The notes under the pieces were generated by a model, which ran no database searches, was not told the origin of the DNA, and worked only from the letters and a program-made list of their open reading frames with translations. From an uncultured Bacilli bacterium (GTDB lineage: Bacteria > Bacillota_I > Bacilli_A > RF39 > UBA660), in assembly GCA_934096605.1 (NCBI GenBank), contig CAKOMI010000001.1, positions 11,776 to 75,775 on the forward strand: a DNA stretch of 64,000 nt, in the 5' to 3' direction. The position numbers and the translations under genes were made by a program. Of the stretch, positions 2,547-57,094 are shown in pieces. Each line of letters begins with the position of its first letter. The stretch's first letter is position 1.

Positions 2547-2680
2547 TTTATAAGAAAATACGCTGTTTGTGTAGATATAAAATAATACAATTACTATTCT
2601 TCTTTTATAGAGAAAGATTGATTAGTCTTTCTTTTTTCGTAGTTTCATGGTACTATTTTATAGTAGGAAAGAGGCTAAAT

Positions 2681-7273: not shown

Positions 7274-7620
7274 TATTTTTATATGCGTTTTTAATTGCAG
7301 GGCTTTTTTGTATGAGTGCACAGATTTTGCTTGATAATACTAAGCTTACACCAGGACATATTACTAGTATTTATACTGTTTTGGGAGCTTGTTTATCATT
7401 CCTAGGAATTTATCAAAAATTAATTGATTTAGGTGGAGCTGGGGCAACAATTTTAATATCTAACTTTGGTCACTTATTATATCAAGGGGGTTATAGTGGT
7501 TTTCATGAGTTTGGTTTTATTGGCTTTTTTAGTGGACTTTTAGTAAAATCAAGTGCGGCTATTGTAGCGGCGGTGGTGTTTTCTTTCATATTTGCTTTGA
7601 TATTTAAACCTAAAAATTAG
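7270..7620 (+). CDS. spoVAEB: stage V sporulation protein AEB
   Basis: It is a 116-aa polytopic membrane protein with SpoVAE-like sequence. It overlaps spoVAD by 4 nt. Confidence 0.8.
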   Translation: MIFLYAFLIAGLFCMSAQILLDNTKLTPGHITSIYTVLGACLSFLGIYQKLIDLGGAGATILISNFGHLLYQGGYSGFHEFGFIGFFSGLLVKSSAAIVAAVVFSFIFALIFKPKN

Positions 7621-21807: not shown

Positions 21808-23445
21808 ATGAAAGAAAAATTAAATAAACATTATGTAATGGTGATAGGGATATTATTAGTGTCATTGTTATTTTGTATACCATTATTTATTAATCCTTAT
21901 CATGTTAATAACGATACACTTTTTCATGTTAGTAATGTAAGTGTTATAGTAGAGGCTATAAAAACTAATTTTTTAAATGGTATTATTATGCGAATTATGC
22001 CTAATATAGCTAATAACTTTGGTTATGGGACAAGGCTTTTTTATCCGCCTTTAACACATACATTGACGGCGTATTTAGCATATGGATTAAGCTTTTTTAA
22101 TGTATCAGTAATAGACACGATGAAAGTTATGCATTTGTTAGTTTTATTTTTAAGCGGTTTAAGTATGTATTTTTGTGCGTATAGATTTTCACATAATAAA
22201 TTACTTAGTTTTATATCTTCTTTGATTTATATGGGTAGTAGTTATCATATTGATGAAATATATGTAAGAGATAGTGAAGCAGAAGCTTTATTGTTTGTAT
22301 TCTTGCCACTTATAATCACGGCGGTTAAAGAACTACTAGAAGGCAATAAAAAACTATTTTATCCTTTATTTATAATTGGGTATGTTGGTGGTATACTATC
22401 ACATTTTACAATGATGATATATTTTACTTTAATACTAGGCGCTTGTATGTTGTTCTTTTATAAAAAAGTGTTTAGAAAAGAATTTTTAATACCATTTATT
22501 AAAGCATCGATTTTAGTTTTATTGTTAACTTTATTTTTCTTTGAACCTTTATTTGAACATAAGCTATTTGGTAATTACCGAGTTTATCAAAAATGGGTTA
22601 TGTCTTTAGGGATTCAACATACGGCTCTTTGGGGATTTGAATATTTCATTCCTTTTGATAAAAGTGAAATATATTTTTATTTAAGTATAATAACAATTGT
22701 TTTGTTAGTAGCATTCTTTAAATATTATCGTAAGGATTTGAAAGATGAAAAAGTTAAATTAGTATTCATTTTTACATGCTTTAGTTTATGGCTTTCAACG
22801 GTATATTTTCCCTGGATTATTATGCCTTATACAATGTTTATGATTCAATTTGGGTGGCGTCTTGTGGCCTTAGTTATTTTAGGGGTATCTTTTATAGCAC
22901 CTATGGCTTTAAAGGAATCTAAAAGTAAGATTATTTACGGAGTAGTTATTTTAGGTCTTATTATATCTGGTTTTACGGCAATTCATTTTGCTAGTGATGA
23001 TATAGTGGATATTAATTCTTTAAATTATGTTTACGGTATGGGCTGGCAAAGAGAGTATTTGCCTGTTGATATGGAAACTAATTTAGATTATTACAATAAT
23101 AGAGGACAAGACGTAGTGGTAACAGAAGGAAAAGGTAGCGTTGAAACTACTTTAAATAATGTACCTGATTTAGAGTTTAAAGTTACTAGTGATGATAGTG
23201 TAACGATTGAAATGCCAAGAATATTTTACTTTGGTTATGAGTTAACTCGTGAAGATGGAGAAGTAATACCTTTGTTTTCCAATGGCAATGGCTTTTTAGC
23301 TAGTCACGTTACAAGTGGTAGTTATAAATTAAAATATAAGGGTACCATTACATACAGAATATGTATATATATTTCACTTACAACATTAGGGGTATTACTT
23401 CTTTATGTATTAGTTAAAGTAATTAAGATAAAAATTTTAAAATAA
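21808..23445 (+). CDS. large polytopic membrane protein, possible glycosyltransferase or YfhO-like
   Basis: It has at least 10 TM helices and a C-terminal extracytoplasmic domain. An ATG at 21808 follows a GGTGG RBS. Function is not resolved. Confidence 0.4.
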   Translation: MKEKLNKHYVMVIGILLVSLLFCIPLFINPYHVNNDTLFHVSNVSVIVEAIKTNFLNGIIMRIMPNIANNFGYGTRLFYPPLTHTLTAYLAYGLSFFNVSVIDTMKVMHLLVLFLSGLSMYFCAYRFSHNKLLSFISSLIYMGSSYHIDEIYVRDSEAEALLFVFLPLIITAVKELLEGNKKLFYPLFIIGYVGGILSHFTMMIYFTLILGACMLFFYKKVFRKEFLIPFIKASILVLLLTLFFFEPLFEHKLFGNYRVYQKWVMSLGIQHTALWGFEYFIPFDKSEIYFYLSIITIVLLVAFFKYYRKDLKDEKVKLVFIFTCFSLWLSTVYFPWIIMPYTMFMIQFGWRLVALVILGVSFIAPMALKESKSKIIYGVVILGLIISGFTAIHFASDDIVDINSLNYVYGMGWQREYLPVDMETNLDYYNNRGQDVVVTEGKGSVETTLNNVPDLEFKVTSDDSVTIEMPRIFYFGYELTREDGEVIPLFSNGNGFLASHVTSGSYKLKYKGTITYRICIYISLTTLGVLLLYVLVKVIKIKILK

Positions 23446-23447
23446 TG

Positions 23448-23475
23448 TCAACTTTCATGTAAAGTTGATTTTTTT
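23448..23475 (+). terminator. rho-independent terminator
   Basis: The hairpin TCAACTTTcatgtAAAGTTGA is followed by T7. Confidence 0.55.
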
Positions 23476-23568
23476 ATGTTTATATATTGGACTAAAACTT
23501 TACAAAAAGGGAAAAAAAAGATAAGATAATTATGGAAAGTGGTAGATTGTGGGAGAAAGTGGTGATTT

Positions 23569-24031
23569 TATGTTCATGGGGGAATATCATCATAATCTTG
23601 ATGAAAAGGGTCGTGTTGTTATACCTTCTAAGTTTAGGGGTCTATTAGGTACAGACTTTATTATTACAAAGGGTATTGAAAAGTGCTTGTATGTTTATAG
23701 TGCAGAGGCTTGGCAAGAAATTGTTAATAAGTTAAAGACACTCCCATTTACTAAGAAAGATGCAAGGGCTATTATGCGAAGCTTTTTTGCTAGTGCCACT
23801 TTAGGTGTAACGGACAAACAAGGCAGAGTTATGCTTAGTAGTCCACTTATTAGTTATGCTAATTTATCTTTGGCATGTGTTGTTATAGGTGTTAATGATC
23901 ACGTAGAAATATGGAACTTAGAAGATTACACTAAAATGATGAACGAAACAGAAGAACATTTAGAGGATATCGCTGAAAATATGCTAGAAATAGGAGGGTC
24001 TTATGAAACATTACACAGTTTTGAAGAATGA
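23569..24031 (+). CDS. mraZ: transcriptional regulator MraZ
   Basis: The N-terminus MFMGEYHHNLDEKGRVVIPSKFR is the MraZ signature. It heads the dcw cluster. The ORF track starts at 23549. Confidence 0.9.
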
Positions 24032-24923
24032 GTCAATTGAAGGGCTTAATATACATGCTGATAGCGTTATTGTGGATGGGACACTTGGTTATGCGGGTGA
24101 TTCTAGTGCGATATTAAAAAGAATAAATGAGGGGTTCTTATTCGCCTTTGATCGTGATAATGATGCAATTCTTTATTCTAAAGAAGTATTAGAAAAAATA
24201 GGCTCTAACTTTGAAATAATTCATTCATCTTTTTCTAAAATACCAGAGGTTTTAAAAGAAAAAGGAATAACACATGTTGATGGATTTTTGTTTGACTTAG
24301 GTGTTAGTTCACCCCAGTTAGATGAAAATAGAGGCTTTTCTTTTATGCGTGATGAAAGACTTGATATGCGCATGGATAAAGATGCACTACTAAGTGCTTA
24401 TGAGGTAGTAAATAACTATTCTTATGAAAAATTAAAAAATATATTTTATCGTTATGGGGAAGAAAAGAAAAGTGCTTTTATTGCTAAAGAAATAGTAAAG
24501 ACAAGAGATAATGAAAGTATTAAAACAACGATGGAGTTATGTGAAATTATTAAAAAAGCTGTTGGGGCTAATTACTATTATAAGAATCACCCAGAAAGAC
24601 AAATATTTCAAGCTATTAGAATAGAGGTAAATGCTGAATTAAAAGAAATAGAAACAGTTTTACCAGAATGTATTAAGATGCTTGATAAAGGGGGAAGAAT
24701 AGTTGTTGTTACTTTTCATTCTTTAGAAGATAGGATTGTTAAACAAATATTTAAAAAATATAGTGAAGTTGATGAAATGGTTAAGGGAATCCCAGAAATA
24801 CCTCTTGAGTATAAACCACTTATTAAACTTGTGAATAGAAAACCAATTTTGCCAAGTGAAGAAGAATTAAAGGAAAATTCGCGTAGCGCTAGTGCTAAAT
24901 TAAGAATTGTAGAAAGGATATAA
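24003..24923 (+). CDS. rsmH: 16S rRNA (cytosine1402-N4)-methyltransferase RsmH
   Basis: It has the SAM-binding motif DGTLGYAGDS and the typical length and position after mraZ. Confidence 0.9.
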   Translation: MKHYTVLKNESIEGLNIHADSVIVDGTLGYAGDSSAILKRINEGFLFAFDRDNDAILYSKEVLEKIGSNFEIIHSSFSKIPEVLKEKGITHVDGFLFDLGVSSPQLDENRGFSFMRDERLDMRMDKDALLSAYEVVNNYSYEKLKNIFYRYGEEKKSAFIAKEIVKTRDNESIKTTMELCEIIKKAVGANYYYKNHPERQIFQAIRIEVNAELKEIETVLPECIKMLDKGGRIVVVTFHSLEDRIVKQIFKKYSEVDEMVKGIPEIPLEYKPLIKLVNRKPILPSEEELKENSRSASAKLRIVERI

Positions 24924-24926
24924 CAT

Positions 24927-25220
24927 ATGAAAAAAAGAAATAAAAGAGTAAAAATATTAAAAGGTGAAAAGATGATCTATACATTAATATTACTTGCTGT
25001 TATATCTTTTCCAATGGCAACAGTTTTTACGAAAGCTAAGTTATCAGAAACTAATATTGCTCTAGAACAAATTAAAAGTAAAGTAAGTACCCAAGAAGGT
25101 ATTAATGAATCATTAAGTATGCAAGTAGATGAACTTGCTAGTCTTGATAAAATTGAATCAGTTGCAACAGAGAAAGGATTGTCTTATAATAATAACAATA
25201 TTAAAAATATAAACGAATAA
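24927..25220 (+). CDS. ftsL: cell division protein FtsL-like
   Basis: It is a 97-aa bitopic protein with a coiled-coil, sitting between rsmH and the PBP gene. Confidence 0.65.
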   Translation: MKKRNKRVKILKGEKMIYTLILLAVISFPMATVFTKAKLSETNIALEQIKSKVSTQEGINESLSMQVDELASLDKIESVATEKGLSYNNNNIKNINE

Positions 25221-25233
25221 TTTAGGAGAGAGT

Positions 25234-27375
25234 ATGAAAAAAATGAACCCAAAAAACAGGAAAATTAAACTTAATGTAAAACTTACAATGCTTGTTGTTG
25301 GGTTCTTTTTCTGTCTAATAATAATTAAACTATGTTATGTTGTGCTATCACCAAGTGTGGATGGTATTGATTTAACAAGTTTTGCAAATAATAGGAATAC
25401 GACACATGAAACGCTTTATGCTTCAAGAGGTATTATCTATGATAAAGATGGAAAACCACTGGCTAAGAATGCTAATTCATATAAAGTGGTGGCTATTTTA
25501 TCACCTTCTAGGACAACGGATATGGCAAATCCCCAGCATGTCGTTGATAAGGATAAAACAGCAACTAGCTTATGTGGAGTCCTTGCAAGTGATGAGAATA
25601 AAGCAAAATGTATAGAAGATATAACTAAATATTTAAATCAGAATTTATATCAAGTTGAACTTGGTAATTGGGGTAAGATAAGTGAAGATGAAAGACAAGC
25701 GATTTTGGCGTTAGATTTGCCGGGAATTATATTTGAAACGTTAGCTAAGAAAAGACAATATATTAATTCTTCTTGGGCGTCATATATTTTGGGTTATGCA
25801 AGAGTAAATGATGAAGACGAAATAAAAGGGGAGATGGGAATCGAATCTTATTTTGATGAACAACTTTCTGGTAGTAATGGTTATGTAGAGTATCAAAAAG
25901 ATGCATATGGCTATAAAATGGCTACTTCTAGTGAAATTAGGGAAGATGCGGTAAGCGGTAGTGACATTTATTTATCTATTAATAGTGATGTACAAAACAT
26001 TTTAGAAAATGCCGTGACTAATTTTACAAAGGATGAGAGTCAAGCTTGGACTATTTTTACAGTAATGGATGCGAAAACTGGGGCCATAGTGGGGAGCGCT
26101 ACAAACCCTAATTTTAATCCAAATACATTAGATAATTTAACAAGTTATTTAAATCCACTAGTAGCTTATCAATATGAACCTGGTAGTACAATGAAGATAT
26201 TCTCTTGGCTAGCAGCGATGGAAAATGGTGTTTATAATGGCAAAGAAGATTATTTATCTGGTACTATAACGCTTCAAGATGGACAAACCAAAATAAAAGA
26301 CTTCAACAATGTTGGATGGGGTAACATTTCTTATGATACTGGTTTTGCATATTCATCTAATGTCGCGGCTACTAATTTGGCTTTAAAACTTGGATCGGCA
26401 AAACTAAGCGATTTTTATGATTTATGTGGCTTTGGTAAGAAAACAGGTATAACTTTACCAGGTGAAGCAAGTGGTAGTATTGATTTTACTTATGAATCAG
26501 AACTTGCTAATGCTTCTTTTGGACAAGGTATAAGTGTTACACCAATTCAACTTTTACAAGCAATGAGTGCTTTTGCTAATGATGGGGTGATGGTAAAACC
26601 TTATATAGTTTCTAAAATGGTTGATGCTAGTGGTAAAGTAGTGATGGAAGGCAAAAGAACTGAGGTAGGAACAATTGGCTCGAAAGAAAATATTGAAGCA
26701 ATGAAAAGTCTTATGTATAACGTAGTATATAATAGTTTTCTTTATAACAAAAATTATGCTCCTAGTAATGTTACTATTGCTGGAAAAACTGGAACAGCCC
26801 AAATAGCAAGTCCTAGTGGTGGTTATTTAACTGGGTCTACTGATTATATTAAATCTTTTTTAGGTTTATTTCCTTATGAAAATCCTCAATATGTATTTTA
26901 TTTTGCTACTAAACAATTTAAAGGTAATTCTAATAAAATATATAGTGTAGTAAGTAACACGATTAAGGACGTGGCTAATATAGTCGAGGTTACTAATGAA
27001 GAGAGTTCAGTTGATAAAACAATGATTATTGATTTAGCACAGTATATTTCTAAAGAAACAACTGTGACGGTAGAAGAACTAAAAAAAATAGGTTTAACAC
27101 CAATAGTAATAGGAAATGGTAAATATGTTACAAATCAATATCCTTTAAATAAGGCTAGGGTAATAAAGGGTTCAAAAGTATTTATTAAGACAAATGATGA
27201 CGTGGTAACAATGCCTAATATGACTGGTTGGAGTGAAAATGAAGTTATAAGATATTGTAATTTTGTAGGTCTTAGTTATAAATTAGAAGGCTATGGCAAA
27301 GTAGTGAGTCAAAGTATAAAAGTAAATACAATAGTAGATAAAAGCATGACTTTAGAAATTAATTTGACTGTTTAA
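25234..27375 (+). CDS. pbpB: penicillin-binding protein 2B (FtsI-type transpeptidase with two C-terminal PASTA domains)
   Basis: It has an N-terminal TM helix and the transpeptidase motifs STMK, SSN and KTGTA. Two PASTA repeats are present. Confidence 0.9.
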   Translation: MKKMNPKNRKIKLNVKLTMLVVGFFFCLIIIKLCYVVLSPSVDGIDLTSFANNRNTTHETLYASRGIIYDKDGKPLAKNANSYKVVAILSPSRTTDMANPQHVVDKDKTATSLCGVLASDENKAKCIEDITKYLNQNLYQVELGNWGKISEDERQAILALDLPGIIFETLAKKRQYINSSWASYILGYARVNDEDEIKGEMGIESYFDEQLSGSNGYVEYQKDAYGYKMATSSEIREDAVSGSDIYLSINSDVQNILENAVTNFTKDESQAWTIFTVMDAKTGAIVGSATNPNFNPNTLDNLTSYLNPLVAYQYEPGSTMKIFSWLAAMENGVYNGKEDYLSGTITLQDGQTKIKDFNNVGWGNISYDTGFAYSSNVAATNLALKLGSAKLSDFYDLCGFGKKTGITLPGEASGSIDFTYESELANASFGQGISVTPIQLLQAMSAFANDGVMVKPYIVSKMVDASGKVVMEGKRTEVGTIGSKENIEAMKSLMYNVVYNSFLYNKNYAPSNVTIAGKTGTAQIASPSGGYLTGSTDYIKSFLGLFPYENPQYVFYFATKQFKGNSNKIYSVVSNTIKDVANIVEVTNEESSVDKTMIIDLAQYISKETTVTVEELKKIGLTPIVIGNGKYVTNQYPLNKARVIKGSKVFIKTNDDVVTMPNMTGWSENEVIRYCNFVGLSYKLEGYGKVVSQSIKVNTIVDKSMTLEINLTV

Positions 27376-27413
27376 AAAACAAACATTTTAGATATAGTAT
27401 GTTTGTTTTTTTC
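27375..27413 (+). terminator. rho-independent terminator after the PBP gene
   Basis: AAAAAACAAACAT pairs with ATGTTTGTTTTTT and a T-run follows. Confidence 0.6.
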
Positions 27414-27416
27414 TTA

Positions 27417-27731
27417 TTATACTAAATTAAAATAGTAAACGTCCTGGATATTGTCATTTTCTTTATTACAAGTAGTAAGGATTAATCTTTTTTCATTACG
27501 ACTTATGATACTTAAATTTCCATTTTTAGTTATATGATCTATTTTTATTAACTTATAATTATAGATATTTTTATTATAGTAAATAGTAGCTTTATCTTTT
27601 AAATATAGCTTATCTAAATTTTTAAAAAAGAAAACATTACTAGTACCAGAATGACTGGCTAAGATAAAGCCATAGTTATTATTTGGAGTACATTCTTTAG
27701 AAATAACGGTGACTAGGCGATTTTCTTTTTT
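27417..27731 (-). pseudogene. sortase-like C-terminal remnant (about 104 codons, no start codon)
   Basis: The minus-strand frame is open from a TAA stop. It encodes ...ILASHSG...YNYKLIKIDHITKNGNLSIISRNEKRLILTTCNKEND..., matching the sortase His and TLxTC active-site region. It has no N-terminal TM or His region and no ATG/GTG/TTG start. A T8 tract sits at its 5' edge. Confidence 0.35.
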
Positions 27732-27858
27732 TTAAGATAAATTTTTTAAAAAAATGTATATAGTAAGTATTTTATTTGTTTTTTGTTTATGCTAAAATTA
27801 AAGTATATTAAAGTAGAAAAGGAGGATGGTTAGCACAAGAATGTGTTAATTAAAGATT

Positions 27859-27897
27859 ATGAGATTAATTAAAAATAGGTTGGGGGGGGGGTTCTAG
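27859..27897 (+). CDS. upstream uORF MRLIKNRLGGGF* terminating just after the G10 tract
   Basis: The ATG at 27859 reads through the G-run as GGG x3 and stops at TAG 27895-97. With G9 it would fuse to the main ORF. Confidence 0.4.
   Translation: MRLIKNRLGGGF
27882..27891 (+). repeat. G10 homopolymer, a putative slipped-strand phase-variation tract
   Basis: Ten consecutive G residues in a genome of roughly 28% GC. They lie between the upstream ATG and the paralog B ORF. Confidence 0.85.
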
Positions 27898-27967
27898 TAA
27901 TAAGGATAAGATAGAACTTCAGGTATTTAGAGAACCTAATAAAAAAAGAAAAATTATATTAATAACT

Positions 27968-29287
27968 GTGTTATTTAGTATGTTAGCATTATCTTGTATG
28001 TACTTATATAAAACATATGCGGTGTTTACAGAAGAGAAACACTTTAATGTAATCAATGGAACTGTTCAAGATCCAGGAGATATTTATTTTGCATATTATG
28101 TAGATAATACAATAACAAGGGAAATGCCTAAGAAAGGAACAGGCTATACATTAGATATCGAAAAAAGCAATTGTACAAATGGAGTAACAGTAGGTTGGAA
28201 TCAAGATAAGTGGACAGCTCTAGTTAACTATGAAAACTATAATGCCACTGATTATACAAGAACAAAATGTAATTTGTATTTTAAACAAGTAACATATTGC
28301 GATTTGCATTCCGAGACAATGGCTTGTCAAATAACAAAGTTGGCAACAACAGAAACTACAAGCTTAGCCATAGATGACTATGGCAATACAAGATATATAG
28401 GAGCAGATCCAAACAACTATGTAAGCGTAGATGGTGATATATGGCGTATCATCGGTGTTATGAAGGACATAGATGATGGTACAGGTAATAAAAGTGACAG
28501 GGTAAAATTAATAAGAGCTGATTCAATAGGTGATTATTCATGGGACACAAGTGAAAGTTCTGTAAACGAAGGATATGGAGTAAACGAATGGAGCCAAGCA
28601 GATTTAATGAAATTATTAAATCCTGGCTATGAAAGCGTGACAGTAGGTGGCTCATTATACTGGAATAATGGAACAGGCACATGCTATAATAACAGAGCTA
28701 ATGTAGCTGCTAGTTGTAATTTCACAAGTATGGGTATCAGAGAAAAATTAAAAACACTAATAAGTGATGTCGTATGGAACACAGGCAGTCAAGGAACAAA
28801 TAATTATCAAAGCACTGGTGGAGGATTAGTAAAACATTTCTATACCTATGAAAGAGGTAATAATACTGGCAAAATTTGTTCAAGCGGCAACTATTGCAAT
28901 GACTTTGTGACAAGAACAACGACATGGACAGGAAAAGTTGGCTTAATGTATCCAAGCGACTATGGCTATGCCACAAGTGGAGAAAGTATAACAAACCGAG
29001 CAACATGTCTGAATACATATTTAAATAACTGGGGTAGCAGTAGTGTAAGTGACTGCAAAAATGGTGATTGGCTATTTAATAGTAGCAGTTCCCAATGGAC
29101 ATTATCGTCAGGTGCTTACTCTTCTGTTGCTGACTTTGTGTTCTTTGTGCATAGTAGTGGAATTATCAATTTTGATTATGCATATGACACTAATGCAGTT
29201 CGTCCTGTTGTTTACCTTTTGTCATCAGTAAAAATAGTATCGGGTGATGGTTCTTCTTCAAATCCATATGTCTTATCTGGCAGCTAG
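27968..29287 (+). CDS. surface protein paralog B with the conserved C-terminal domain; the 5' end may extend to ATG 27859 after a -1 G slip
   Basis: The ORF-track ORF opens at GTG 27968. Upstream in frame, and free of stops back to TAA 27866, lies ...GGSSNKDKIELQVFREPNKKRKIILITV. The C-terminal 320 aa are homologous to the other three paralogs (WRIIGVMKDIDDGTGNKSDRVKLIR, GVNEWSQADLMKLLNPGYE, ICSSGNYCND, TWTGKVGLMYPSDYGYA, VRPVVYL...SGDGSSSNPY). Confidence 0.8.
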   Translation: MLFSMLALSCMYLYKTYAVFTEEKHFNVINGTVQDPGDIYFAYYVDNTITREMPKKGTGYTLDIEKSNCTNGVTVGWNQDKWTALVNYENYNATDYTRTKCNLYFKQVTYCDLHSETMACQITKLATTETTSLAIDDYGNTRYIGADPNNYVSVDGDIWRIIGVMKDIDDGTGNKSDRVKLIRADSIGDYSWDTSESSVNEGYGVNEWSQADLMKLLNPGYESVTVGGSLYWNNGTGTCYNNRANVAASCNFTSMGIREKLKTLISDVVWNTGSQGTNNYQSTGGGLVKHFYTYERGNNTGKICSSGNYCNDFVTRTTTWTGKVGLMYPSDYGYATSGESITNRATCLNTYLNNWGSSSVSDCKNGDWLFNSSSSQWTLSSGAYSSVADFVFFVHSSGIINFDYAYDTNAVRPVVYLLSSVKIVSGDGSSSNPYVLSGS

Positions 29288-29397
29288 TTAAAAAAATAAA
29301 TACATATTTTATTGTTTTAAAAGTTATGTTAAAATACGAAATATAAATAAAGTAGAAAAGGAGGATAGTTAGCACGTGAATGTGTTAATTAAAGATT

Positions 29398-29436
29398 ATG
29401 AGATTAATTAAAAATAGGTTGGGGGGGGGGTTCTAA
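29398..29436 (+). CDS. upstream uORF MRLIKNRLGGGF* (second copy)
   Basis: The ATG at 29398 reads through the G10 tract and stops at TAA 29434-36. Confidence 0.4.
   Translation: MRLIKNRLGGGF
29421..29430 (+). repeat. G10 homopolymer, second putative phase-variation tract
   Basis: Ten consecutive G residues, in the same context as 27882-27891. Confidence 0.85.
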
Positions 29437-29506
29437 TAATAGAGGCGAGATAGAACTTCAGGCTTTTAGAGAACCTAATAAAAAAAGAAAAATTATATTA
29501 GCAACT

Positions 29507-30805
29507 ATGTTGTTTAGTATGTTAGTATTATCTTGTATGTACTTATATAAAACATATGCCGTGTTTACAGAAGAAAAACACTTTAATGTGATAAATGGTG
29601 AGGTGCAAGATCCAGGAGATATCTATTTTGCTTATTATGCAGATAATACAATAACAAGGAGTATGCCTAAGAAAGGAACAGGCTATACTTTAGATACCGA
29701 AAAAAGTAATTGTACTAATGGAGTCATACCAAAATGGGATAATGGCGGTTGGCAATTTATAGGTGATTATAGTGATTATAATGCAACAGATTACACCAGA
29801 ACCAGATGCAATTTGTATTTTAAAAAAATAGATATAACGGCTGTTGATTATATTAAAGAGTTGGCTAAATACGATACAGAAACACTTGCTACAGATGAAG
29901 CTGGAGGTAATGTTAGGTATATAGGAAAATCTCCTGATAATTATGTAAATATTGATGGCGATATATGGCGTATCATTGGCGTTATGAAAGATATAGATGA
30001 TGGTACAGGAAAAAAGAGTGACAGAGTAAAATTAATAAGATCTTCTTCAATAGGAAAATATTCATGGGATAGTAGTGATTCAAAAGTTAATTATGGCAAG
30101 GGTGTTAATGAATGGAGTCAGGCCGATTTAATGAAACTTTTAAATCCTGGGTATGAAAGTGAGTCAGTAGGAGGCTCATTATATTGGAATGGCAAGTCGG
30201 GTACATGTTATAGTGATCAAAAAAATATTACAACAAGTTGTGATTTTACAAGTACAGGCATAAAAGATAAGTTGAAAAGATTAATAGGTAATGTTAATTG
30301 GGGGCTTGGGTCTGTTGATGGAGTAACTTATACATTTGCTAATATTTCTACCATTAAGTCATATGAATTTGAACAAAGTACTAATACGGGTAAAATTTGC
30401 GATGGGACGTATCAAGGAGGTATATACTGTACAGACACAGTAATAAGAACAACAACCTGGACCGGAAAAGTAGGCTTAATGTATCCTTCTGATTATGGTT
30501 ATGCGACAAGTGGTGGTAGTACAATTGATAGAGCAAAATGTTTAAAAGCTGCGATGCATTCTTGGAACAACGATTTGAATTTTTGCTATGAAAATAACTG
30601 GTTATCATGTGGCATTGATGAATTTACTTTAACTCCATCTCCTAGACCTGAATTTGATTATGATATTTTTTCTATTCATAATAAGGTTATTGATAGTTAT
30701 AGTGCGAATGCCTACATAAATGTTCGCCCTGTAGTATATTTAAAACCATCTGTATCTATTCAAAGCGGAGATGGCTCAGAAAATAGTCCTTTTATACTAG
30801 AATAA
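29507..30805 (+). CDS. surface protein paralog C with the conserved C-terminal domain; the 5' end may extend to ATG 29398 after a -1 G slip
   Basis: It has the same architecture as paralog B. The first 70 or so aa are nearly identical to B. The middle region is divergent. The C-terminal domain is conserved. Confidence 0.8.
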   Translation: MLFSMLVLSCMYLYKTYAVFTEEKHFNVINGEVQDPGDIYFAYYADNTITRSMPKKGTGYTLDTEKSNCTNGVIPKWDNGGWQFIGDYSDYNATDYTRTRCNLYFKKIDITAVDYIKELAKYDTETLATDEAGGNVRYIGKSPDNYVNIDGDIWRIIGVMKDIDDGTGKKSDRVKLIRSSSIGKYSWDSSDSKVNYGKGVNEWSQADLMKLLNPGYESESVGGSLYWNGKSGTCYSDQKNITTSCDFTSTGIKDKLKRLIGNVNWGLGSVDGVTYTFANISTIKSYEFEQSTNTGKICDGTYQGGIYCTDTVIRTTTWTGKVGLMYPSDYGYATSGGSTIDRAKCLKAAMHSWNNDLNFCYENNWLSCGIDEFTLTPSPRPEFDYDIFSIHNKVIDSYSANAYINVRPVVYLKPSVSIQSGDGSENSPFILE

Positions 30806-30845
30806 TTCTTTTGAAAAGAAAATAATACTTATTTCTTTTTCTAGT

Positions 30846-30885
30846 AAAGCCTAATAAATACTGCAGCTTATTAGGCTTTATTAAA
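30846..30885 (+). terminator. rho-independent terminator after the paralog pair
   Basis: AAAGCCTAATAA pairs with TTATTAGGCTTT and a weak T/A run follows. Confidence 0.5.
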
Positions 30886-30906
30886 AATATAGAAAGGTTT
30901 TTGTAT

Positions 30907-31455
30907 ATGAATAAAAAAGGTTTTGTGTTTATTGAAACTATAATAGTTATATCAATACTTTTAGCATCTTTGATGATTGTGTATTCTTTATATGTTTCAT
31001 CTATTAATAAAGAAAATAAAAGATTAAGATATGATGATCCAGTTAAATTATATCAAACGTTTTATATGAAACAATATTTAAATAGTTTTCGTCTTAATGA
31101 ATTAGAGAAAAATATTACTAATGAAAATCCATATATTAATATATATGGACAAAGTGATTTATTTGGTGGATCTTTTAGTAATGAAAAAAAGTTTTTTGAA
31201 AGAATTACAGATGAACTTAATATTGAAACAATTTTACTTACTACTTACGATGTGTCTTTATTAACTGATTGCAAAGAAAATAGAAATATGCTTTGTACTA
31301 ATAATAATTTAATCGAGTACTTAAATACTTTAGATAATGATGGAAAAAGTGGCTATAGGTTAATTATTGAGTATAAAGAACAGTTGAATGGTAAGAAATG
31401 TGAAAATAAAAAAGATTGTTATTCTTTCTATTCAAATGTATGGGTAGGTGATTAA
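30907..31455 (+). CDS. type IV prepilin-like protein (pilin or pseudopilin)
   Basis: The N-terminus MNKKG|FVFIETIIVISILLASLMIVY is a class III signal with G|F and Glu at +5. The C-terminal part has paired cysteines. Confidence 0.75.
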   Translation: MNKKGFVFIETIIVISILLASLMIVYSLYVSSINKENKRLRYDDPVKLYQTFYMKQYLNSFRLNELEKNITNENPYINIYGQSDLFGGSFSNEKKFFERITDELNIETILLTTYDVSLLTDCKENRNMLCTNNNLIEYLNTLDNDGKSGYRLIIEYKEQLNGKKCENKKDCYSFYSNVWVGD

Positions 31456-32060
31456 TGATGAAAAGTAAGGGATTTACATTAGTAGAAATTATTGTAAGTG
31501 TAGCACTTATTTCTATTGTGTTACTTTTATTATTCCAATTAATGACTGATATGGAGTATGATTCTTTAACTTCTATGTTTGCTAGTGATAATCAGGTGAA
31601 TAGAGCGACTATCATAAAAAGAATTGACAAGGATTTAATGGATTATGGTCTTAAAAGTATACCTAGTATTAACAATATTACTAATGGTAAACAAATTAAG
31701 CTTAGTTTTAGTAATGGTAGTAGTAAAGATATTATTGTAACTTCTAGTACACTTACATATGATGGGGAAAGTTATACAGTTTCTTCTGGTGGTTCTTATG
31801 ATATTAATAATATAAAGATTGTATCTATACCTAGTAATTCAGAGAAACTTTGTTCTTATATGTTAAATATTGATACAAATAACGATGGTGTATGTGATGC
31901 GAACTGTGGAACTAATGAGAGTAATATGACGAAGAAAAATGATAATTATGTATATTGTCCTATTTATCAAGCTATAAAAATAGTTATACCTGTTTTGTTT
32001 AGTGAAGATGATGTGGCACTTGATGATATAGAAATATTTTATATTGGAAAATTAAGTTAG
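31455..32060 (+). CDS. type IV prepilin-like protein (pilin or pseudopilin)
   Basis: The N-terminus MMKSKG|FTLVEIIVSVALISIVLLLLFQLM is a canonical prepilin signal. Cysteines are present in the C-terminal region. Confidence 0.75.
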   Translation: MMKSKGFTLVEIIVSVALISIVLLLLFQLMTDMEYDSLTSMFASDNQVNRATIIKRIDKDLMDYGLKSIPSINNITNGKQIKLSFSNGSSKDIIVTSSTLTYDGESYTVSSGGSYDINNIKIVSIPSNSEKLCSYMLNIDTNNDGVCDANCGTNESNMTKKNDNYVYCPIYQAIKIVIPVLFSEDDVALDDIEIFYIGKLS

Positions 32061-32128
32061 ATTATAGCTTAATTTTTTTCTTTTACTTTTAAACAAATGT
32101 ATGTTATTATGTTGGTGGTGATTTAAAA

Positions 32129-32683
32129 ATGTATAATTATATAGTTGGAAAAATAACAGATATAGAAGCTAGTTATATAGTACTAGAGTGTAGTGGGATA
32201 GGATATCAAATTTATGTTTCTAATCCTTATCAATTTGAAATTAATAGTGAAACTAAGGTATATGTATATACACAGATAAAGGAAGATGAACATAATTTAT
32301 ATGGTTTTAAAACTAAAGAAGAAAAGGAATTGTTTTTGAGACTTATTAATGTTAAAGGGGTTGGGCCAAAGCTTGTGATGCCAATGCTTGCAACTGGTAG
32401 TGTTAATGGGATTATTGACGCGATAGATAGAGAAAATATTTTATATTTAAAGAAATTTCCTAAAGTAGGAGAGAAAGTGGCAAGACAAATTATTCTTGAT
32501 TTAAAAGGTAAACTTGCTAAAACAGGTGATACGCCTAGTATTGGTGGTTTTGAAGAGTTAGTAAGTGTCTTAGAAGGACTTGGGTATAAAACGGCTGATA
32601 TTAAGAAAATACTACCTAATTTAAATATAAATGATGAGATAGAGGTGCAAGTAAAAGAAGCATTAAAATTATTACTTAAATAG
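32129..32683 (+). CDS. ruvA: Holliday junction DNA helicase RuvA
   Basis: It is 184 aa with an OB-fold N-terminus and HhH motifs ([12 protein letters not shown]). Confidence 0.9.
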
Positions 32684-32691
32684 GAGGATAT

Positions 32692-33699
32692 ATGGAAGAT
32701 GAAAAAATATTAGAAGCTGAAGAACAAGAGATAGATAACAGCTTACAAAATATTAGACCACAAAGTTTAGATGAATATGTTGGACAAAAAGAAATTACTG
32801 ATAATTTAAGAGTATTTATTCAAGCAAGTAAAATAAGAAATGAATCGCTTGATCACGTGCTTTTATATGGACCACCCGGTTTAGGTAAAACAACGCTTGC
32901 CCACATTATAGCTAATGAACTTGGCGTTGGTATTAAGACAGCATCAGGTCCTTCAATTGAAAAAAGCGGGGACTTGGCTGCGGTTTTATCAACACTTGAG
33001 CAAGGTGACGTATTGTTTATTGATGAGATTCATCGGATGCCTAAATTTATTGAAGAAATACTTTATCCTGCTATGGAAGACTTTGAAATGGATTTAGTTT
33101 TAAATAATGATGGTAAAAGTAGAAATATAAAAATTGATTTACCACCATTTACTTTAGTTGGGGCAACTACTAGGGCTGGTGATATTTCATCACCACTAAG
33201 AGATAGATTTGGTATTATTTCTAAATTACAATATTATACAGAGGATGAATTATTACAGATAGTTACAAGAACAAGTAAAGTACTTAATATGCCAATTGAT
33301 GAAGATGCTGCGAGATTAATTGCTAAACGTTGTCGTAAAACGCCAAGAATTGCCAATCGTTTGTTTAAACGTGTACGTGATTTTGCTTTAGTAAGTGGGG
33401 CAGATAAAATAGAATATGATATGGCTAACGAATCTTTAAAACGCTTAAAAGTAGATGAATATGGTCTTGATTCCATTGATATTGAATACTTAAAAAGTTT
33501 AATTACTAAGTTTAATGGCGGCCCTGTTGGTGTTGAAACAATCGCTACTAGTATAGGTGAAGAGGTTTCAACAATAGAAGATGTTGTAGAACCATTTTTA
33601 TTGCAAGAAGGCTTTATTAAAAGAACACCAAGAGGACGTATGGCCGAAGAAAAAGCATATGATCATTTAAAGATTGATCACATGACTTCACTATTTTAA
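32692..33699 (+). CDS. ruvB: Holliday junction DNA helicase RuvB
   Basis: It has the Walker A motif [11 protein letters not shown] and the RuvB sensor motifs. Length is 335 aa. Confidence 0.95.
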
Positions 33700-33716
33700 A
33701 AGTAATACCTATATAG

Positions 33717-33830
33717 AAAAATAAACCAGTTATTGATGAAAGATTTTGTGGGAGTGGACGCAAATATAAAATATGTTGTGGCAAATAAGCTCACAAAGCC
33801 TTATAAATAAAAGGTTTGTGGGCTTTTTGC
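33717..33830 (+). repeat. SEC-C-motif relic (…RFCGSGRKYKICCGK*) followed by a terminator hairpin; repeat family member 1
   Basis: An open frame without a start codon encodes a CGSG-KYK-CCG tail. It contains a 14-mer, TGTGGGAGTGGACG, that also occurs at 36967. A hairpin GCTCACAAAGCCTT...AAGGTTTGTGGGC is followed by T5. Confidence 0.5.
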
Positions 33831-33910
33831 TACTTACAATTTAGGTAATTTTACCTCAAAAAAACGTTTAGAATGGAAACAAAGAGATAAAAAATTTAAG
33901 GAGGCATATT

Positions 33911-34717
33911 ATGATAATTGATAATAAGCTTTTAGAAAATGATATTATTAAATCTTTTATGAAAAAATATAAAATTCCAAAAGAATTAAGTATTAAAATC
34001 ATAATTACTGATGATATGGAAAAAGAGTATAAGCATCAATTGAATAAATTTAATAAAAGGTATGATTACATTAGCCCGATTGATTATAATGGTATTACTT
34101 GTGTTCCAAATAGTATCGATGAAGAAACTATAATTTTAATAAATTATGATAGAGTTAAAGATATAAAGTCTAATAATGCTGAAGTAATTTGTACAATTTT
34201 TCATGAATTGATTCATGCAAAGGATTATTATTTTTATTATAAAAATTATTGCAACGGATTATATGATTCTTCAAAGAATAGAGATAGTCAATATGGATTT
34301 ATGAATTGGTCAGAATTTAATGCTAAAAAAATATCTTATCTTGAGTATTGTAAATTATTGCATAGTGAAAAGCTTTATAAAGACGAAGAATTAGAAAATA
34401 TAAAGAGAAATGAATGGCCAATTAAAAACAAAGAAATAGTAGACATTTTAAATAATAAAGATTCAGATATGGAATATATTATATATAATTTAATGCTTTA
34501 TTTAGGGCGTTATTCCATATGGGAAGAATTATTTTTTGGAGAATTTAATAATGGTAATAAATTTCCAGAAGAACTAAATATGTATAAACCAGTAATAGAT
34601 GAATTATATAAAGTTTTAAAAAATAATGCTGGTAAAATAGAAGATTATATAGAAATTAAAAAATTAATAAATTATTTTAAAGGTGCGTGGGTAAACATAA
34701 TGCGTGATAGAAGTTAA
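33911..34717 (+). CDS. hypothetical protein with an HExxH motif (HELIH)
   Basis: It is 268 aa with no signal peptide. FHELIHAKDYYFYY suggests a Zn-metallopeptidase or ImmA-like fold. No further assignment is possible. Confidence 0.4.
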   Translation: MIIDNKLLENDIIKSFMKKYKIPKELSIKIIITDDMEKEYKHQLNKFNKRYDYISPIDYNGITCVPNSIDEETIILINYDRVKDIKSNNAEVICTIFHELIHAKDYYFYYKNYCNGLYDSSKNRDSQYGFMNWSEFNAKKISYLEYCKLLHSEKLYKDEELENIKRNEWPIKNKEIVDILNNKDSDMEYIIYNLMLYLGRYSIWEELFFGEFNNGNKFPEELNMYKPVIDELYKVLKNNAGKIEDYIEIKKLINYFKGAWVNIMRDRS

Positions 34718-34835
34718 AATAAATCTTTTATTTTAGATAAGTTTTAGATAAGTATTTCAAAGTATTGAAAGTGCTTCAATCCCTTATAAAATAAGGTTAA
34801 AATGCTTATAAAATTAGATAAGCTTTTTGTGGGAT

Positions 34836-34864
34836 TTGCCAAATTACAAGAAAAGTGCTATAAT
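34836..34864 (+). promoter_or_regulatory. sigma-A promoter TTGCCA-17-TATAAT
   Basis: It has 17-bp spacing and lies upstream of the T-box leader of metG. Confidence 0.5.
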
Positions 34865-34894
34865 TTACTCATTCACAAAGCCATTGCGAGGAAG

Positions 34895-35165
34895 AGTAAA
34901 AAAATATAAAGCATTTTAGAGAACTCTGTTAGGTGAAAAAGAGGATGTAAGTATTTTTTGAACATGGCCCTCAAGGCGAATGACTGAAATACTCTTAGTA
35001 GGTCATTACGGGGATGCCCGTTATAGCAGATACCTATAACTATGCAAAAGACATAAGTAGGTTAGTGAGTTTAATACAGTAATGTATTAATAAATAAGAG
35101 TGGTAACGTGAATATATTCACCTCTTAGAGACTTAGTGTTTCTAAGAGGTTTTTTGTTTAAAGAA
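34895..35165 (+). promoter_or_regulatory. T-box riboswitch leader (probable Met specifier) controlling metG
   Basis: The T-box-like sequence AATAAGAGTGGTAACGTG overlaps an antiterminator. The terminator CCTCTTAGAGA...TCTAAGAGG plus T6 lies just before the RBS. Confidence 0.55.
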
Positions 35166-36955: not shown

Positions 36956-37055
36956 TGCCAAAAGCTGTGTGGGAGTGGACGATGGTATGAACAATGTTGT
37001 GGTAAATAACTCGCACACCCCAATAAAATAAGGGGAAAAGCGAGTTTTTCTTTTT
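36956..37055 (+). repeat. SEC-C-motif relic (…KLCGSGRWYEQCCGK*) plus terminator hairpin; repeat family member 2
   Basis: It has the same 14-mer and the same ATGTTGTGGyAAATAA core as 33741-33788. The terminator is CTCGC...GCGAG plus a T-run. Confidence 0.5.
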
Positions 37056-50267: not shown

Positions 50268-50993
50268 TTATATGTCTTCATTTAATAAATTTTTTTTATA
50301 TTCATTATAAGCTTTGATTTCATTTTTATCATGATATTCTTGATATTCTATTTTTTTCTCTTTTAATATTTGTTTTACTAAGTATTCAGTAAAATAAGGA
50401 TTTCTAATTAGAATGGGACCAAGTATATATGTACCATAGAAATTGTTTTTATGAATGCCTTCAGAAGGAGATTTTGGCTGGTAGCCTGTACCAGATTTGA
50501 TATCAAATAGATGGGGGTCTTTAACGAATTTCAAAACGGAACTACGATTTTGGAAACCAATAATTTCTTCTTGAAAGTTTTTCATTGTGGCCACGGTTTC
50601 GCCGACAATTCGAAAATCAGTTTCATGGGCTTCATAATTAAATAATCCGAGGGTTTCTTTTTTGATATCATCTTTAGTGTAGTAGGCTTTACCAAAGAAA
50701 TCTAAAGCGTTACCAGTAATAATAAAGAATTTGTTTTCTTTGTAAGATTTTATAAATTCACTTTTATGCTTCAACATGTTATCTAAAACAAATAAGAAAT
50801 TTTCTTTATTACCACTGCCAATGTAGAAAATATCATATTTAGAAAAATCAATGTTATCTTCTACCGATAAGTAATGAGTAATAACTCTTACTTTATGGTT
50901 TTCTAAGTGGTGTGCAAGGGCAAGTATATTTCCATGTTCGCCATAAAGATTCATTAAGTCATAGTATAAATGGGCTATTTTAATCGTTTCCAT
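50268..50993 (-). CDS. gatD: lipid II isoglutaminyl synthase glutaminase subunit GatD (CobQ-type glutamine amidotransferase)
   Basis: It is 241 aa and begins IAHLYYDLMNLYGEHGN. It overlaps the upstream murT. Confidence 0.75.
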   Translation of the reverse strand: METIKIAHLYYDLMNLYGEHGNILALAHHLENHKVRVITHYLSVEDNIDFSKYDIFYIGSGNKENFLFVLDNMLKHKSEFIKSYKENKFFIITGNALDFFGKAYYTKDDIKKETLGLFNYEAHETDFRIVGETVATMKNFQEEIIGFQNRSSVLKFVKDPHLFDIKSGTGYQPKSPSEGIHKNNFYGTYILGPILIRNPYFTEYLVKQILKEKKIEYQEYHDKNEIKAYNEYKKNLLNEDI

Positions 50994-52329
50994 TTGCGGC
51001 CTCCTTAAATTTTGTTTTTAAAACAGACGTCATATCAAAGCAAACCATTGTATAAATATCACCTTTAGTTTCATTTAAAAGGATTTTATTTATGTCATTT
51101 AGATCATCGACCATGATAATTTTATCTTCTTTTATTTTAGCATAGTTTAATCTGACTAAAATGTCCCATTTGAAACGGCCAATTAAAACAATATGCTTGA
51201 TAGATTCTTCATTTAATAATTCAAAGTCAACGTCCCATAACCAAGATAAATCATTATATTTGTATCTTCTTGAAACATTATCAAAACCTAAGATAACGGT
51301 TTTTTCGCCATCAGCTTCGGCAATATATTTAAGACTTTGATAGTAACTTAAAGCATTTTCATTTTTACTTTCAAGCATCGTAATATCACGATCTAAAAGT
51401 TTTAATTCTTTACCTCGTTTAGTACTAACTTTATCTTTATTTAGAGCATATAAGATTTTGTTTTTCTTAATGCCAATAGAGTTACATAAAGCGTAGGCGG
51501 CAACCTCAGCATAAACAGTGAATAAAAAGTTTTTATTTAAAGAAATGGTTTCATTATCAATAGTAAATGTTTTATTTTTAAAATCAACGTTTTTAGCTAA
51601 ATAATCAGGATTACCTCTTTTAAAGTCACAGCCTGGGCAATAATATGAACCAATATGACCATAATGATAATAATAATAAATTAGTTTTCTATGGCATACT
51701 GGACAATAAGCGTTATCTAAACTAAAGTTATCTTTTTTGTTATAAGAAAGACTAGTTTTGGCAACACCATAGGTAATAACTTTACCTTTGAACATTTCTT
51801 TAGATTTCATAAGACCTGGGTCATCAGCATTTAAAATAAGCGTGGTTGATTCATCAATTGCATTAAATATTGCGTCATATACTATATCAGGAGAACCATT
51901 ACGGGCTGGTTGATCTCTTGTAATATTTGTTACAACCAAGTGAGTCATCTTATTTTTGCCAAACGCTAAATGCAAGTGTTTTTCATCTAATTCAAGTAGT
52001 AAAACGTCATGTTTAAAACGACCAAAGATAGTACAATTATTTAAAATAAGAGTTGTAATACCGCGAATACCATTACTACCACTTTCATTATAAACAACGT
52101 CTAAACCAGCATCTTTTAAAATATGATAAATAAAGTTAGTAGTTGTTCCTTTACCACTAGAACCAGTAACACCAATAACATATTTAGGATATTTTATTTT
52201 TTCTAGGACACGCTGATTCATATTGTAACTAATAGAACCAGGAAATTGGGTACCATTTTTTTTAAATAGTTTACATATATATGTTAAAATTTTATTGACT
52301 ATAATTTGTAAAGTCATCATGTTAATCAC
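50980..52329 (-). CDS. murT: lipid II isoglutaminyl synthase ligase subunit MurT
   Basis: It has the Mur ligase P-loop VIGVTGSSGKGTTT. A Cys4 zinc ribbon (CPVCH...CPGCD) and a DUF1727-like C-terminus are also present. Confidence 0.8.
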   Translation of the reverse strand: MINMMTLQIIVNKILTYICKLFKKNGTQFPGSISYNMNQRVLEKIKYPKYVIGVTGSSGKGTTTNFIYHILKDAGLDVVYNESGSNGIRGITTLILNNCTIFGRFKHDVLLLELDEKHLHLAFGKNKMTHLVVTNITRDQPARNGSPDIVYDAIFNAIDESTTLILNADDPGLMKSKEMFKGKVITYGVAKTSLSYNKKDNFSLDNAYCPVCHRKLIYYYYHYGHIGSYYCPGCDFKRGNPDYLAKNVDFKNKTFTIDNETISLNKNFLFTVYAEVAAYALCNSIGIKKNKILYALNKDKVSTKRGKELKLLDRDITMLESKNENALSYYQSLKYIAEADGEKTVILGFDNVSRRYKYNDLSWLWDVDFELLNEESIKHIVLIGRFKWDILVRLNYAKIKEDKIIMVDDLNDINKILLNETKGDIYTMVCFDMTSVLKTKFKEAANGND

Positions 52330-52438
52330 TCCTTAAACCTTATTATAGCACGGGGTTATAGTCTTTTTATAAAAAAATACTAAAAAAACTCTTATTTGAC
52401 GACTTTTTTTATATTTGGTATATTTATTAAGAGGTCAT

Positions 52439-56994: not shown

Positions 56995-57094
56995 TCCTTT
57001 TATTCTTTAATAATTTTATCATGAATTGATAAGGAATACAATTCTATTAATGATAAAAGTTTTTTCTTGACAATTCTTTTGGGAGGAGGGTACA

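Follow-up and report, generated by a model that had tools for sequence, protein, structure and literature searches.

Analysis of a 64-kb stretch of a contig from an uncultured gut Bacilli bacterium (hereafter the window; GC content 28.9%) led us to two tandem paralogous genes, A and B, which lie between a division-cluster block upstream (mraZ, rsmH, ftsL and a penicillin-binding protein (PBP) gene; 23549-27375) and two pseudopilin-like genes followed by ruvAB downstream (30901-33699). Each gene carries a tract of ten guanines near its start, and we consider it very probable that A and B belong to a very large paralogous family of exported lectin-like proteins and vary in phase independently of each other, being switched by frameshifts at these poly-G tracts and diversified, more slowly, by recombinational shuffling of the gene bodies. 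The features on which this reading rests are collected in Table 1.

The two G10 tracts are the sole runs of G or C of at least eight nucleotides (nt) in the window, where overlapping G8 matches number 6 against 0.21 expected, and each tract begins seven codons past an ATG (27859 in gene A, 29398 in gene B). When the reading frame was tested at different tract lengths, G9 or G12 gave uninterrupted open reading frames (ORFs) of 475 amino acids (aa) in A and 468 aa in B, and G8, G10 and G11 led to a stop after 12-18 codons, G10 doing so after 12 codons in both genes. The in-frame proteins begin MRLIKNRLGGGS... An earlier reading of this DNA, made from the sequence only, had listed both the G10 tract and a small upstream ORF ('uORF'), which are indeed present, and had missed their role as a frameshift switch: because G10 halts the frame after 12 codons, this 'uORF' is the severed N-terminus of the gene itself. 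Gene callers had given internal-start forms of 435 aa (GTG 27968, A) and 428 aa (ATG 29507, B), starts that have no Shine-Dalgarno sequence (SD) and whose product opens with a hydrophobic segment lacking a charged n-region. Dozens of homologues from other organisms read ...GGG... shortly after a lysine-rich N-terminus, for example MKLFKSVTHSGGGYNN..., MLNLKKKNLKSDSGGGLL... and MARGGGYNN... Elsewhere in the window, a G7 run (54117-54123) in an obg-like GTPase gene encodes an ordinary glycine-rich GGPDGG, with no association with the family and no sign of switching.

Contigs of close relatives, drawn from ENA and NCBI assemblies, revealed that the length of both tracts is polymorphic on otherwise identical DNA (in JGI metagenome contigs, an exact-pattern search for leader plus tract had 0 matches). 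In the window both genes stand at G10 (OFF). A contig from a Hadza sample (L083) has gene A at G9 (ON) and gene B at G10 (OFF), and over 6.4 kb (window 25359-31787) it shows 0 mismatches, a single G in gene A being the sole difference. The reverse state, with A at G10 (OFF) and B at G9 (ON), is found in L001, where one G in gene B is the sole difference over 11.5 kb (window 23398-34976). L002 does not cover gene A and has B at G9 (ON), again the only real difference from the window, since a second apparent gap is a scaffold N-run and no variable repeat. Both genes are at G9 (ON) in L084 and at G10 (OFF) in L088 and L089; the gene A tract is G9 in L085 and the gene B tract is G9 in L086 and L087. 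All four A/B states (OFF/OFF, ON/OFF, OFF/ON and ON/ON) occur among the assemblies, those of the same organism matching the window over 3.5-11.5 kb apart from one G, and from the tract combinations across L083, L001, L084 and the window it follows that the four expression states exist on essentially one genetic background. The protein annotations follow the tracts: the 475-aa protein P0130 is annotated where gene A is at G9 (L083, L084, L085), and the 468-aa proteins P0039 and P0123 where gene B is at G9 (L001, L002, L084, L086, L087). Classified by the called protein form, gene B is ON in 15 contigs and OFF in 81, and gene A is ON in 7 and OFF in 34 (22 ON and 115 OFF for both genes pooled).

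The tract is a trait of the whole family. More than 7,900 relatives came up in a homologue search, and all of them were devoid of Pfam domains. In a scan with one genome per species, 184 relatives were obtained and 80 loci kept, all of them from uncultured Bacilli or 'Tenericutes' gut metagenome-assembled genomes (MAGs); the hosts include Candidatus Ventrenecus spp., UMGS1217 and MAGs from Hadza, rabbit and chicken samples, and some genomes hold a dozen or more family copies, often in tandem arrays of 2-4. Among the 85 gene copies from other species that had enough upstream sequence for scoring, 49 carry a run of at least six G, 113-153 nt before a conserved KTYA motif and mostly G9-G12 in length, with G10 as the modal length (30 of 51 tracts tallied). 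Within 612 kb from related genomes, 43 of the 46 G/C runs of at least eight nt lie just upstream of a family gene, and the remaining 3 look like the same type of promoter as that described next.

Two layouts of the tract can be distinguished. In the ORF layout, seen in the window and at loci L003, L005, L006, L008, L009, L035 and L042, an extended -10, an SD and an ATG are followed by 5-13 codons, the tract and the remainder of the ORF. In the ORF-layout relatives the upstream ATG is preceded, at 7-9 nt, by a proper SD, and the ON length varies by gene (7/10, 8/11 or 9/12). The frame from the ATG through the tract is open in 10/10 ORF-layout genes, compared with 4/36 promoter-type genes that have such an ON length by chance. 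ORF-layout genes have also lost the ATG used as the start in promoter-layout genes (the window has ATA at 27911), and one locus, L012, bears an interrupted ORF-type tract that is locked in frame. In the promoter layout, which prevails in most Ventrenecus-like genomes, the order is TTGAC(N), 0-4 nt, G9-G12, 6-10 nt and TGnTAnAAT, with GGTGA and then ATG AAA CTA GAA... (MKLEKFKE...) downstream. This places the tract between a TTGAC(N) -35 and a TAnAAT -10 in 33 relatives, about 150 nt upstream of family genes (promoter-layout loci: L015, L017, L023, L024, L027, L029, L031, L032, L036-L038, L043-L045, L048, L049, L053, L057-L059, L061, L064, L072, L073, L077 and L079-L082). The spacers of these promoters measure 19-22 nt, with a mode of 20, well over the 17-nt optimum, and in six interrupted ('locked') promoter tracts, GGGAGGGGGG among them, 9-11 nt remain and the spacers are 19-21 nt long. 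The window tracts have no flanking -35/-10 hexamers and sit downstream of SD and ATG, not in a promoter spacer.

The window holds further paralogs of 1075 aa (2567-5794) and 605 aa (57095-58912), which have the lectin-like C-terminal domain in common with A and B and differ in their N-terminal parts, the former containing PKD-like repeats; neither has a G run of at least eight. At 57067-57096, upstream of the paralog as read at 57128-58912, the sequence TTGACA-N8-GGGAGGAGGG-TACAAT puts a G-rich 10-mer into the putative promoter spacer of the 605-aa paralog, whose 5' untranslated region (UTR; attagaat...ggt...ATG) resembles that of promoter-layout relatives. This 10-mer may be a degenerate relic of the family promoter tract; alternatively, it could act as the SD for the ATG at 57095.

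We propose that each gene would be transcribed from its own promoter and translated from its own SD and ATG, and that slipped-strand mispairing at replication would alter the tract length, presumably in a reversible manner within a clone. At G9 or G12 the ATG would be in frame with the 475- or 468-aa ORF and the gene ON; at G10 translation would end after 12 codons and the gene would be OFF, and any product restarted internally would have a signal or anchor sequence without its charged n-region. As the tracts switch independently, a population would hold four expression states. Ahead of gene A stands a putative extended -10-like element; copy B and the relatives L003 and L005 have TGnTAnnAT elements at the corresponding position, and a simple -35/-10 scan did not call the one of gene A. 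Between SD and start, the leader hairpin folds with a minimum free energy of -12.1 kcal/mol against -6.8 +/- 1.8 for shuffled sequences (z = -2.9), and both A/B differences within its stem keep pairing. Compared with L003, the window leaders have an extra 18-nt tandem duplication (ATGTGTTAATTAAAGATT / ATGAGATTAATTAAAAAT), which puts the SD 33 nt from ATG 27859 and creates a mini-ORF in copy A; L003, lacking the duplication, has its SD 9 nt from the ATG. Bypass of the stem would place the SD about 7 nt from ATG 27859, and reinitiation after the mini-ORF would be an alternative route to the same start. An Rfam search at E <= 1 over 27300-31000 had no matching family, and the conserved leader therefore belongs to no known class of riboswitch or leader. 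The hairpin of the likely terminator after gene B was missed by the scan because its stem is AT-rich.

Several observations weigh against frameshift switching. Only G9 and G10 were seen in the window organism, about 83% of contigs having the OFF length; each assembly reports the majority allele of its sample only, and homopolymer lengths from short-read assemblies carry some error. ATG 27859 has no SD at normal spacing, the upstream one requiring hairpin bypass or reinitiation, and an SD-like AAGGA/AGAGG occurs 4 nt before ATA 27911 and before its counterpart in copy B, where weak tract-independent initiation, aligned with the relatives' start, is possible. There are three other accounts of the tract. 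One is that G10 is the working state, the full-length protein being made constitutively through RNA polymerase slippage or programmed ribosomal frameshifting and the DNA polymorphism being incidental. G10 is the majority length here and the modal one in the family, but in-frame G9 alleles are common and stand on identical backgrounds, the gene-to-gene variation of the ON length among relatives argues against one special decoded length, and we saw no slippery heptamer, downstream structure or Rfam match; the known sites of transcriptional slippage are A/T runs. We regard this account as very improbable.

A little less credible still is the idea that the tract belongs to the 5' UTR and acts at the level of RNA or promoter, with translation starting at ATA 27911 behind AAGGA/AGAGG and the frame being irrelevant. 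The 33 relatives with a tract between -35 and -10 speak for it, as does the alignment of this ATA with the relatives' ATG, with the SD-like motif kept. Against it, the window tracts are without flanking promoter elements and have a strong SD and an ATG ahead of them, the frame is open in every ORF-layout gene scored compared with the chance level among promoter-type genes, and ATA is a very poor initiator. The least probable account of all is that the tract differences are homopolymer sequencing or assembly errors and that the genes are ordinary ones starting at GTG 27968 and ATG 29507, or pseudogenes. Short-read homopolymer calls are error-prone and callers did annotate the 435- and 428-aa forms, but both lengths recur in many independent assemblies (B 15/81, A 7/34 contigs), tracts of 9-12 G are found in many species at the homologous site of family genes and are nearly absent elsewhere, the open upstream frame begins with an ATG and has a K-rich leader before GGG in dozens of homologues, and the internal starts offer neither an SD nor a charged n-region.

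The tracts lie within a duplicated 5' block. The sequence-only reading had claimed a near-identical cassette on two tandem genes with divergent middles, at about 88% identity, and this was borne out: a repeat search within the window aligned 27809-28108 with 29348-29647 (91% over 300 nt), the interval 27811-28075 is 90.6% identical (240/265) to its copy at an offset of 1539 nt, and the full 5' block 27809-28160 (352 nt) is likewise 90.6% identical to copy B (319/352), against 29.8 +/- 3.3% (maximum 43%) for random 265-nt window pairs. Some details needed correction. The first repeat interval holds and the second was one base off, 27811 pairing with 29350; of the leader elements described as common to both copies, the ribosome-binding-site (RBS)-like AAAGGAGGA, the uORF and G10 are in both, and the mini-ORF ATG TGT TAA is in copy A alone, because copy B reads GTG AAT GTG. 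A/B identity drops to 35% upstream of about 27800. Beyond the block, what had been taken for 60 unrelated codons consists of two variable patches, V1 and a linker module (41% aa identity between A and B over residues 109-175), with a conserved ATDYTRT[KR]CNLYFK motif separating them, and the homology that was said to resume towards the C-terminus does so in islands of 82-87% nt identity, the 3' third reaching just 47-53%.

Synonymous divergence (dS) between A and B is 1.66 from codon 145 onwards, about five times the value for codons 1-112 in the 5' block (0.31; Fisher p = 9e-9), and a strongly conserved segment (aa 190-259) still has a dS of 1.28. The signal region of gene B is closest to that of A (83%), with the nearest relatives of the B body at just 24-61% there. 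Alleles at these loci are mosaic. At the gene A position of L086, identity to the window is just 51-84% over 28149-29249, where the gene body has been replaced, and mostly 97-100% in the flanks. At the gene B position, P0029 (L090) is 100% identical to B at aa 41-265 and then 20-70%, and P0043 (L091, where the same pilin genes follow) is 48-88% at aa 66-240 and then 92-100%, the junction of these reciprocal chimeras falling within the conserved NEWSQADLMKLLNPGYES block. Across the family V1 comes as the discrete types T, P and K, and with linker modules classed by motif typing, all four combinations of V1 and linker types occur.

These data could be read as gene conversion or recombinational antigenic variation being the primary mechanism, with the conserved 5' cassette and C-terminus serving as homology arms by which a hypervariable module would be replaced in a programmed way and copies would be deleted or duplicated, and the sequence-only reading had indeed recognised here the usual layout of such a system. 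The low 5' dS, the body swap in L086 between near-identical flanks, the reciprocal B chimeras at one locus and the combinations of module types all favour it, as do the tandem arrays of 2-4 copies elsewhere and the single family copy at the syntenic UMGS1217 locus, from which it follows that copy number has changed over evolutionary time. We nevertheless find it doubtful as the primary mechanism. Every copy has its own promoter-like element, SD (RBS) and start, in the window as in all relatives inspected, and promoterless silent donor cassettes were not found; the chimeras set strains of different samples apart and are not variants within a clone; and both genes are retained in each of the organism's six contigs that cover the whole locus, with no deletion or duplication allele, contrary to the suggestion that the cassette could mediate loss or gain of a copy. 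Constraint, too, contributes to the conservation of the 5' block, since its identity between species is 85-89%, and the use of low 5' divergence as sole proof of within-genome gene conversion was tempered for this reason; in tandem pairs elsewhere, too, the 5' parts are more similar than the 3' parts. The poly-G tract and the single-G ON/OFF variants would be left unexplained. Recombinational shuffling between strains finds support in the low 5' dS and in chimeric alleles, whose absence had been named as part of the result that would speak against it and which were found when looked for across strains (L086, L090, L091); a classical gene-conversion system is not. In addition to phase variation by the tracts, we keep recombination as a slower layer, in which homologous exchange anchored in the conserved blocks (the 5' cassette and the NEWSQADLMKLLNPGYES block) would shuffle gene bodies among alleles and paralogs and would also keep the 5' cassettes of neighbouring genes alike.

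The nature of the products was approached by structure prediction. An AlphaFold2 model from 114 sequences (mean predicted local distance difference test (pLDDT) 85.4, predicted template modelling score (pTM) 0.75) has an N-terminus that is charged and disordered, a helix at aa 28-54 that is predicted to be a signal or membrane anchor, a small beta domain at aa 76-143 that includes the V1 hairpin, and a large, confidently modelled C-terminal domain. Six cysteines are invariant and two nearly so, which fits an extracytoplasmic protein, and exposure at the surface seems likely. Pfam and NCBIfam scans of A, B and the N-terminus alone gave no family, and a PDB sequence-profile search with the family profile gave no chain at E <= 1. 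With Foldseek, the sole significant match was 9qa6, an immunoglobulin A (IgA) protease of Thomasclavelia ramosa (E = 3.8e-7, probability 1.00, 347 aligned columns), followed by a weak match to 8q4e, the C-terminal lectin-like domain of Legionella Lcl (E = 0.53). T. ramosa, also a gut member of the Bacilli, is placed in Erysipelotrichales. The N-terminal domain of 9qa6, on which the match probably falls, is an enlarged C-type-lectin-like domain that is closest to 8q4e and dispensable for catalysis (PMC12237041). A and B would share this lectin-like fold but, unlike the T. ramosa enzyme, have no metallopeptidase domain, no HExxH and no sequence-level similarity to it; the M64/igalysin zinc motif HExxHxxxGxxD is absent from both, and they are too short to hold an M64 catalytic domain. 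The model thus points to a ligand-binding, adhesin-like ectodomain, with no protease function indicated. A resemblance of KTYAVFTEE to SipW/TasA-type signals was considered and dropped, the N-terminal 85 aa giving no NCBIfam match at E <= 10.

Repeat-driven phase variation is textbook knowledge for pathogens such as Neisseria, Campylobacter, Treponema and Mycoplasma, and most switches described in gut commensals are DNA inversions. In Mycoplasma, the variable surface families vlp, vsa and vlhA are each switched by a simple repeat, and vaa of M. hominis is a poly-A contingency gene with its tract in the 5' ORF. Like the Mycoplasma families, the genes described here are tandem or dispersed paralogs with a conserved 5' leader and signal region and variable bodies; unlike vlp, which has a promoter poly-A and encodes lipoproteins with internal tandem repeats, they have poly-G and globular lectin-like domains. 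The A/B switch would be the classical contingency-locus mechanism, as in the poly-G genes of Neisseria meningitidis (hmbR/hpuAB; PMC3786947) and Campylobacter jejuni (PMC6321876). As in these, G9-10 stands a few codons past the start, the gain or loss of one G would turn a full-length exported protein into a short stub or back, each neighbouring gene would switch on its own, and the tract is kept, here despite a strongly AT-rich genome. In contrast to these, the host is an uncultured, probably spore-forming low-GC gut member of the Bacilli and no classical pathogen, one family accounts for essentially all the long G tracts seen, and the product is lectin-like without a Pfam family.

Taken as a whole, the family resembles most the situation of tpr and tp0126 in Treponema pallidum, where promoter poly-G modulates transcription and recombinational variation occurs in the same family, in tprK (PMC7864442). 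As with tpr, a multigene family of surface proteins would have its expression controlled by poly-G length and its members diversified by recombination, and as in tp0126 and in porA of N. meningitidis, the tract lies between -35 and -10, here in relatives of the window genes. The window tracts, unlike that of tp0126, lie inside the ORF, and the relatives' spacers are 19-22 nt, not 17; unlike with tprK, silent donor cassettes were not seen and the proteins are unrelated. More generally, the locus lacks the layout of an expression site plus silent donors that characterises pilE/pilS, vlsE, tprK and MgPa.

In the literature on Ventrenecus or on homopolymeric phase variation in gut MAGs we found no description of this lectin-like family. 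A whole family of uncharacterised surface proteins would be under poly-G control, in uncultured Bacilli that often occur in gut metagenomes from Hadza and other humans and from animals, with ON and OFF alleles directly visible in public assemblies. Annotations are wrong at these loci because gene callers truncate or split poly-G genes, and in metagenomes the locus can readily serve as a marker of population dynamics within a host. Ligand binding at the mucosal surface, a role that can be tested, is suggested by the link to the N-terminal domain of the T. ramosa IgA protease, a domain so far without a function, and the selective agent is probably host IgA or phage. The promoter geometry of the relatives, with its anomalously long 19-22 nt spacers, adds to the interest of the host lineage and of the size and exclusivity of the link between tract and family. 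We can imagine that in this lineage nearly all long poly-G tracts are dedicated to this one huge family, related to the N-terminal domain of an IgA protease, and that the tract was recruited in two ways, within the ORF and in a long promoter spacer, where its degenerate 'locked' derivatives still measure about 10 nt. A lineage-specific system would then be indicated in which, for example, a dedicated factor or a property of the polymerase recognises or maintains a G element of 10 nt, and together with recombination between conserved blocks the outcome would be combinatorial surface variation in a commensal, possibly against secretory IgA or phage; we hold this broader idea to be rather improbable.

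Table 1. Coordinates of the features of the A/B locus within the 64-kb window.
Feature	Position	Strand	Remarks
Extended -10-like TGCTAAAAT, putative gene A promoter	27790..27798	+	read from the letters, putative
Conserved 5' cassette, copy A	27809..28160	+	leader, tract and first ~100 codons
Shine-Dalgarno AAAGGAGGA, gene A	27818..27826	+	identical in copy B
11-bp leader hairpin	27827..27852	+	between SD and start; holds mini-ORF ATG TGT TAA 27841-27849
Gene A	27859..29287	+	475 aa at G9; predicted membrane helix, beta domain, large lectin-like C-terminal domain
12-codon stub MRLIKNRLGGGF*, gene A start in the G10 state	27859..27897	+	the 'uORF' of the earlier reading
Poly-G tract, gene A	27882..27891	+	G10 = OFF here; G9 or G12 = ON
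Variable module V1	28184..28252	+	aa 109-131, VTVGWNQDKWTALVNYENYNATD; predicted beta-hairpin
Variable linker module	28283..28384	+	aa 142-175; Cys-type in gene A; contains A/B indel
Extended -10-like TGTTAAAAT, putative gene B promoter	29327..29335	+	read from the letters, putative
Conserved 5' cassette, copy B	29348..29699	+	counterpart of copy A
Shine-Dalgarno AAAGGAGGA, gene B	29357..29365	+	identical in copy A
Gene B	29398..30805	+	468 aa at G9; P0039 100% identical
12-codon stub, gene B	29398..29436	+	counterpart of the gene A stub
Poly-G tract, gene B	29421..29430	+	G10 = OFF here; G9 or G12 = ON
Hairpin + T-run AAAGCCTAATAA...TTATTAGGCTTT, likely terminator after gene B	30846..30880	+	read from the letters
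Two prepilin-type (GF[TV]xxE) pseudopilin-like genes	30907..32060	+	Pfam N_methyl and NCBIfam ComGE/ComGF-like matches; context only

The pseudopilin pair follows a family gene in all contigs of the organism and in UMGS1217, whose syntenic locus (L005 744-6553) holds a T2SSE ATPase, T2SSF platform protein(s), one family gene (G9) and two pilin genes. In the window, a T2SSE (PilB/ComGA-like) ATPase gene (55708-56994, minus strand) is divergent from the 605-aa paralog, and the same ATPase is found near family genes in L044 and L074. Pilin-like ORFs within 4 kb of family genes occur only in the window organism, L005, L015 and L019, and adjacency of pilin and family genes as a family-wide rule was rejected on this count, with four organisms only across all loci.

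Other genes of the window bear on the kind of organism. Three small genes at 5851-7620 look by eye like spoVAC, spoVAD and spoVAE, a MurT-type ligase lies at 50980-52329 (Pfam MurT_C), and a gene at 59543-60832 is MurJ-like by eye; together with the PBP these point to a walled, probably spore-forming organism, yet the label 'Tenericutes' is attached to several related MAGs. A tyrosine recombinase (52415-53317; Phage_integrase and a SAM-like N-terminal domain), probably XerC/D-like by its context, does not adjoin the tandem genes. A 42-nt repeat (33747-33788 and 36968-37009, 81%) encodes the same C-terminal peptide, CGSGRKYKICCGK*, at the end of two different ORFs, a tail that we take to resemble the SEC-C-type metal-binding tail.

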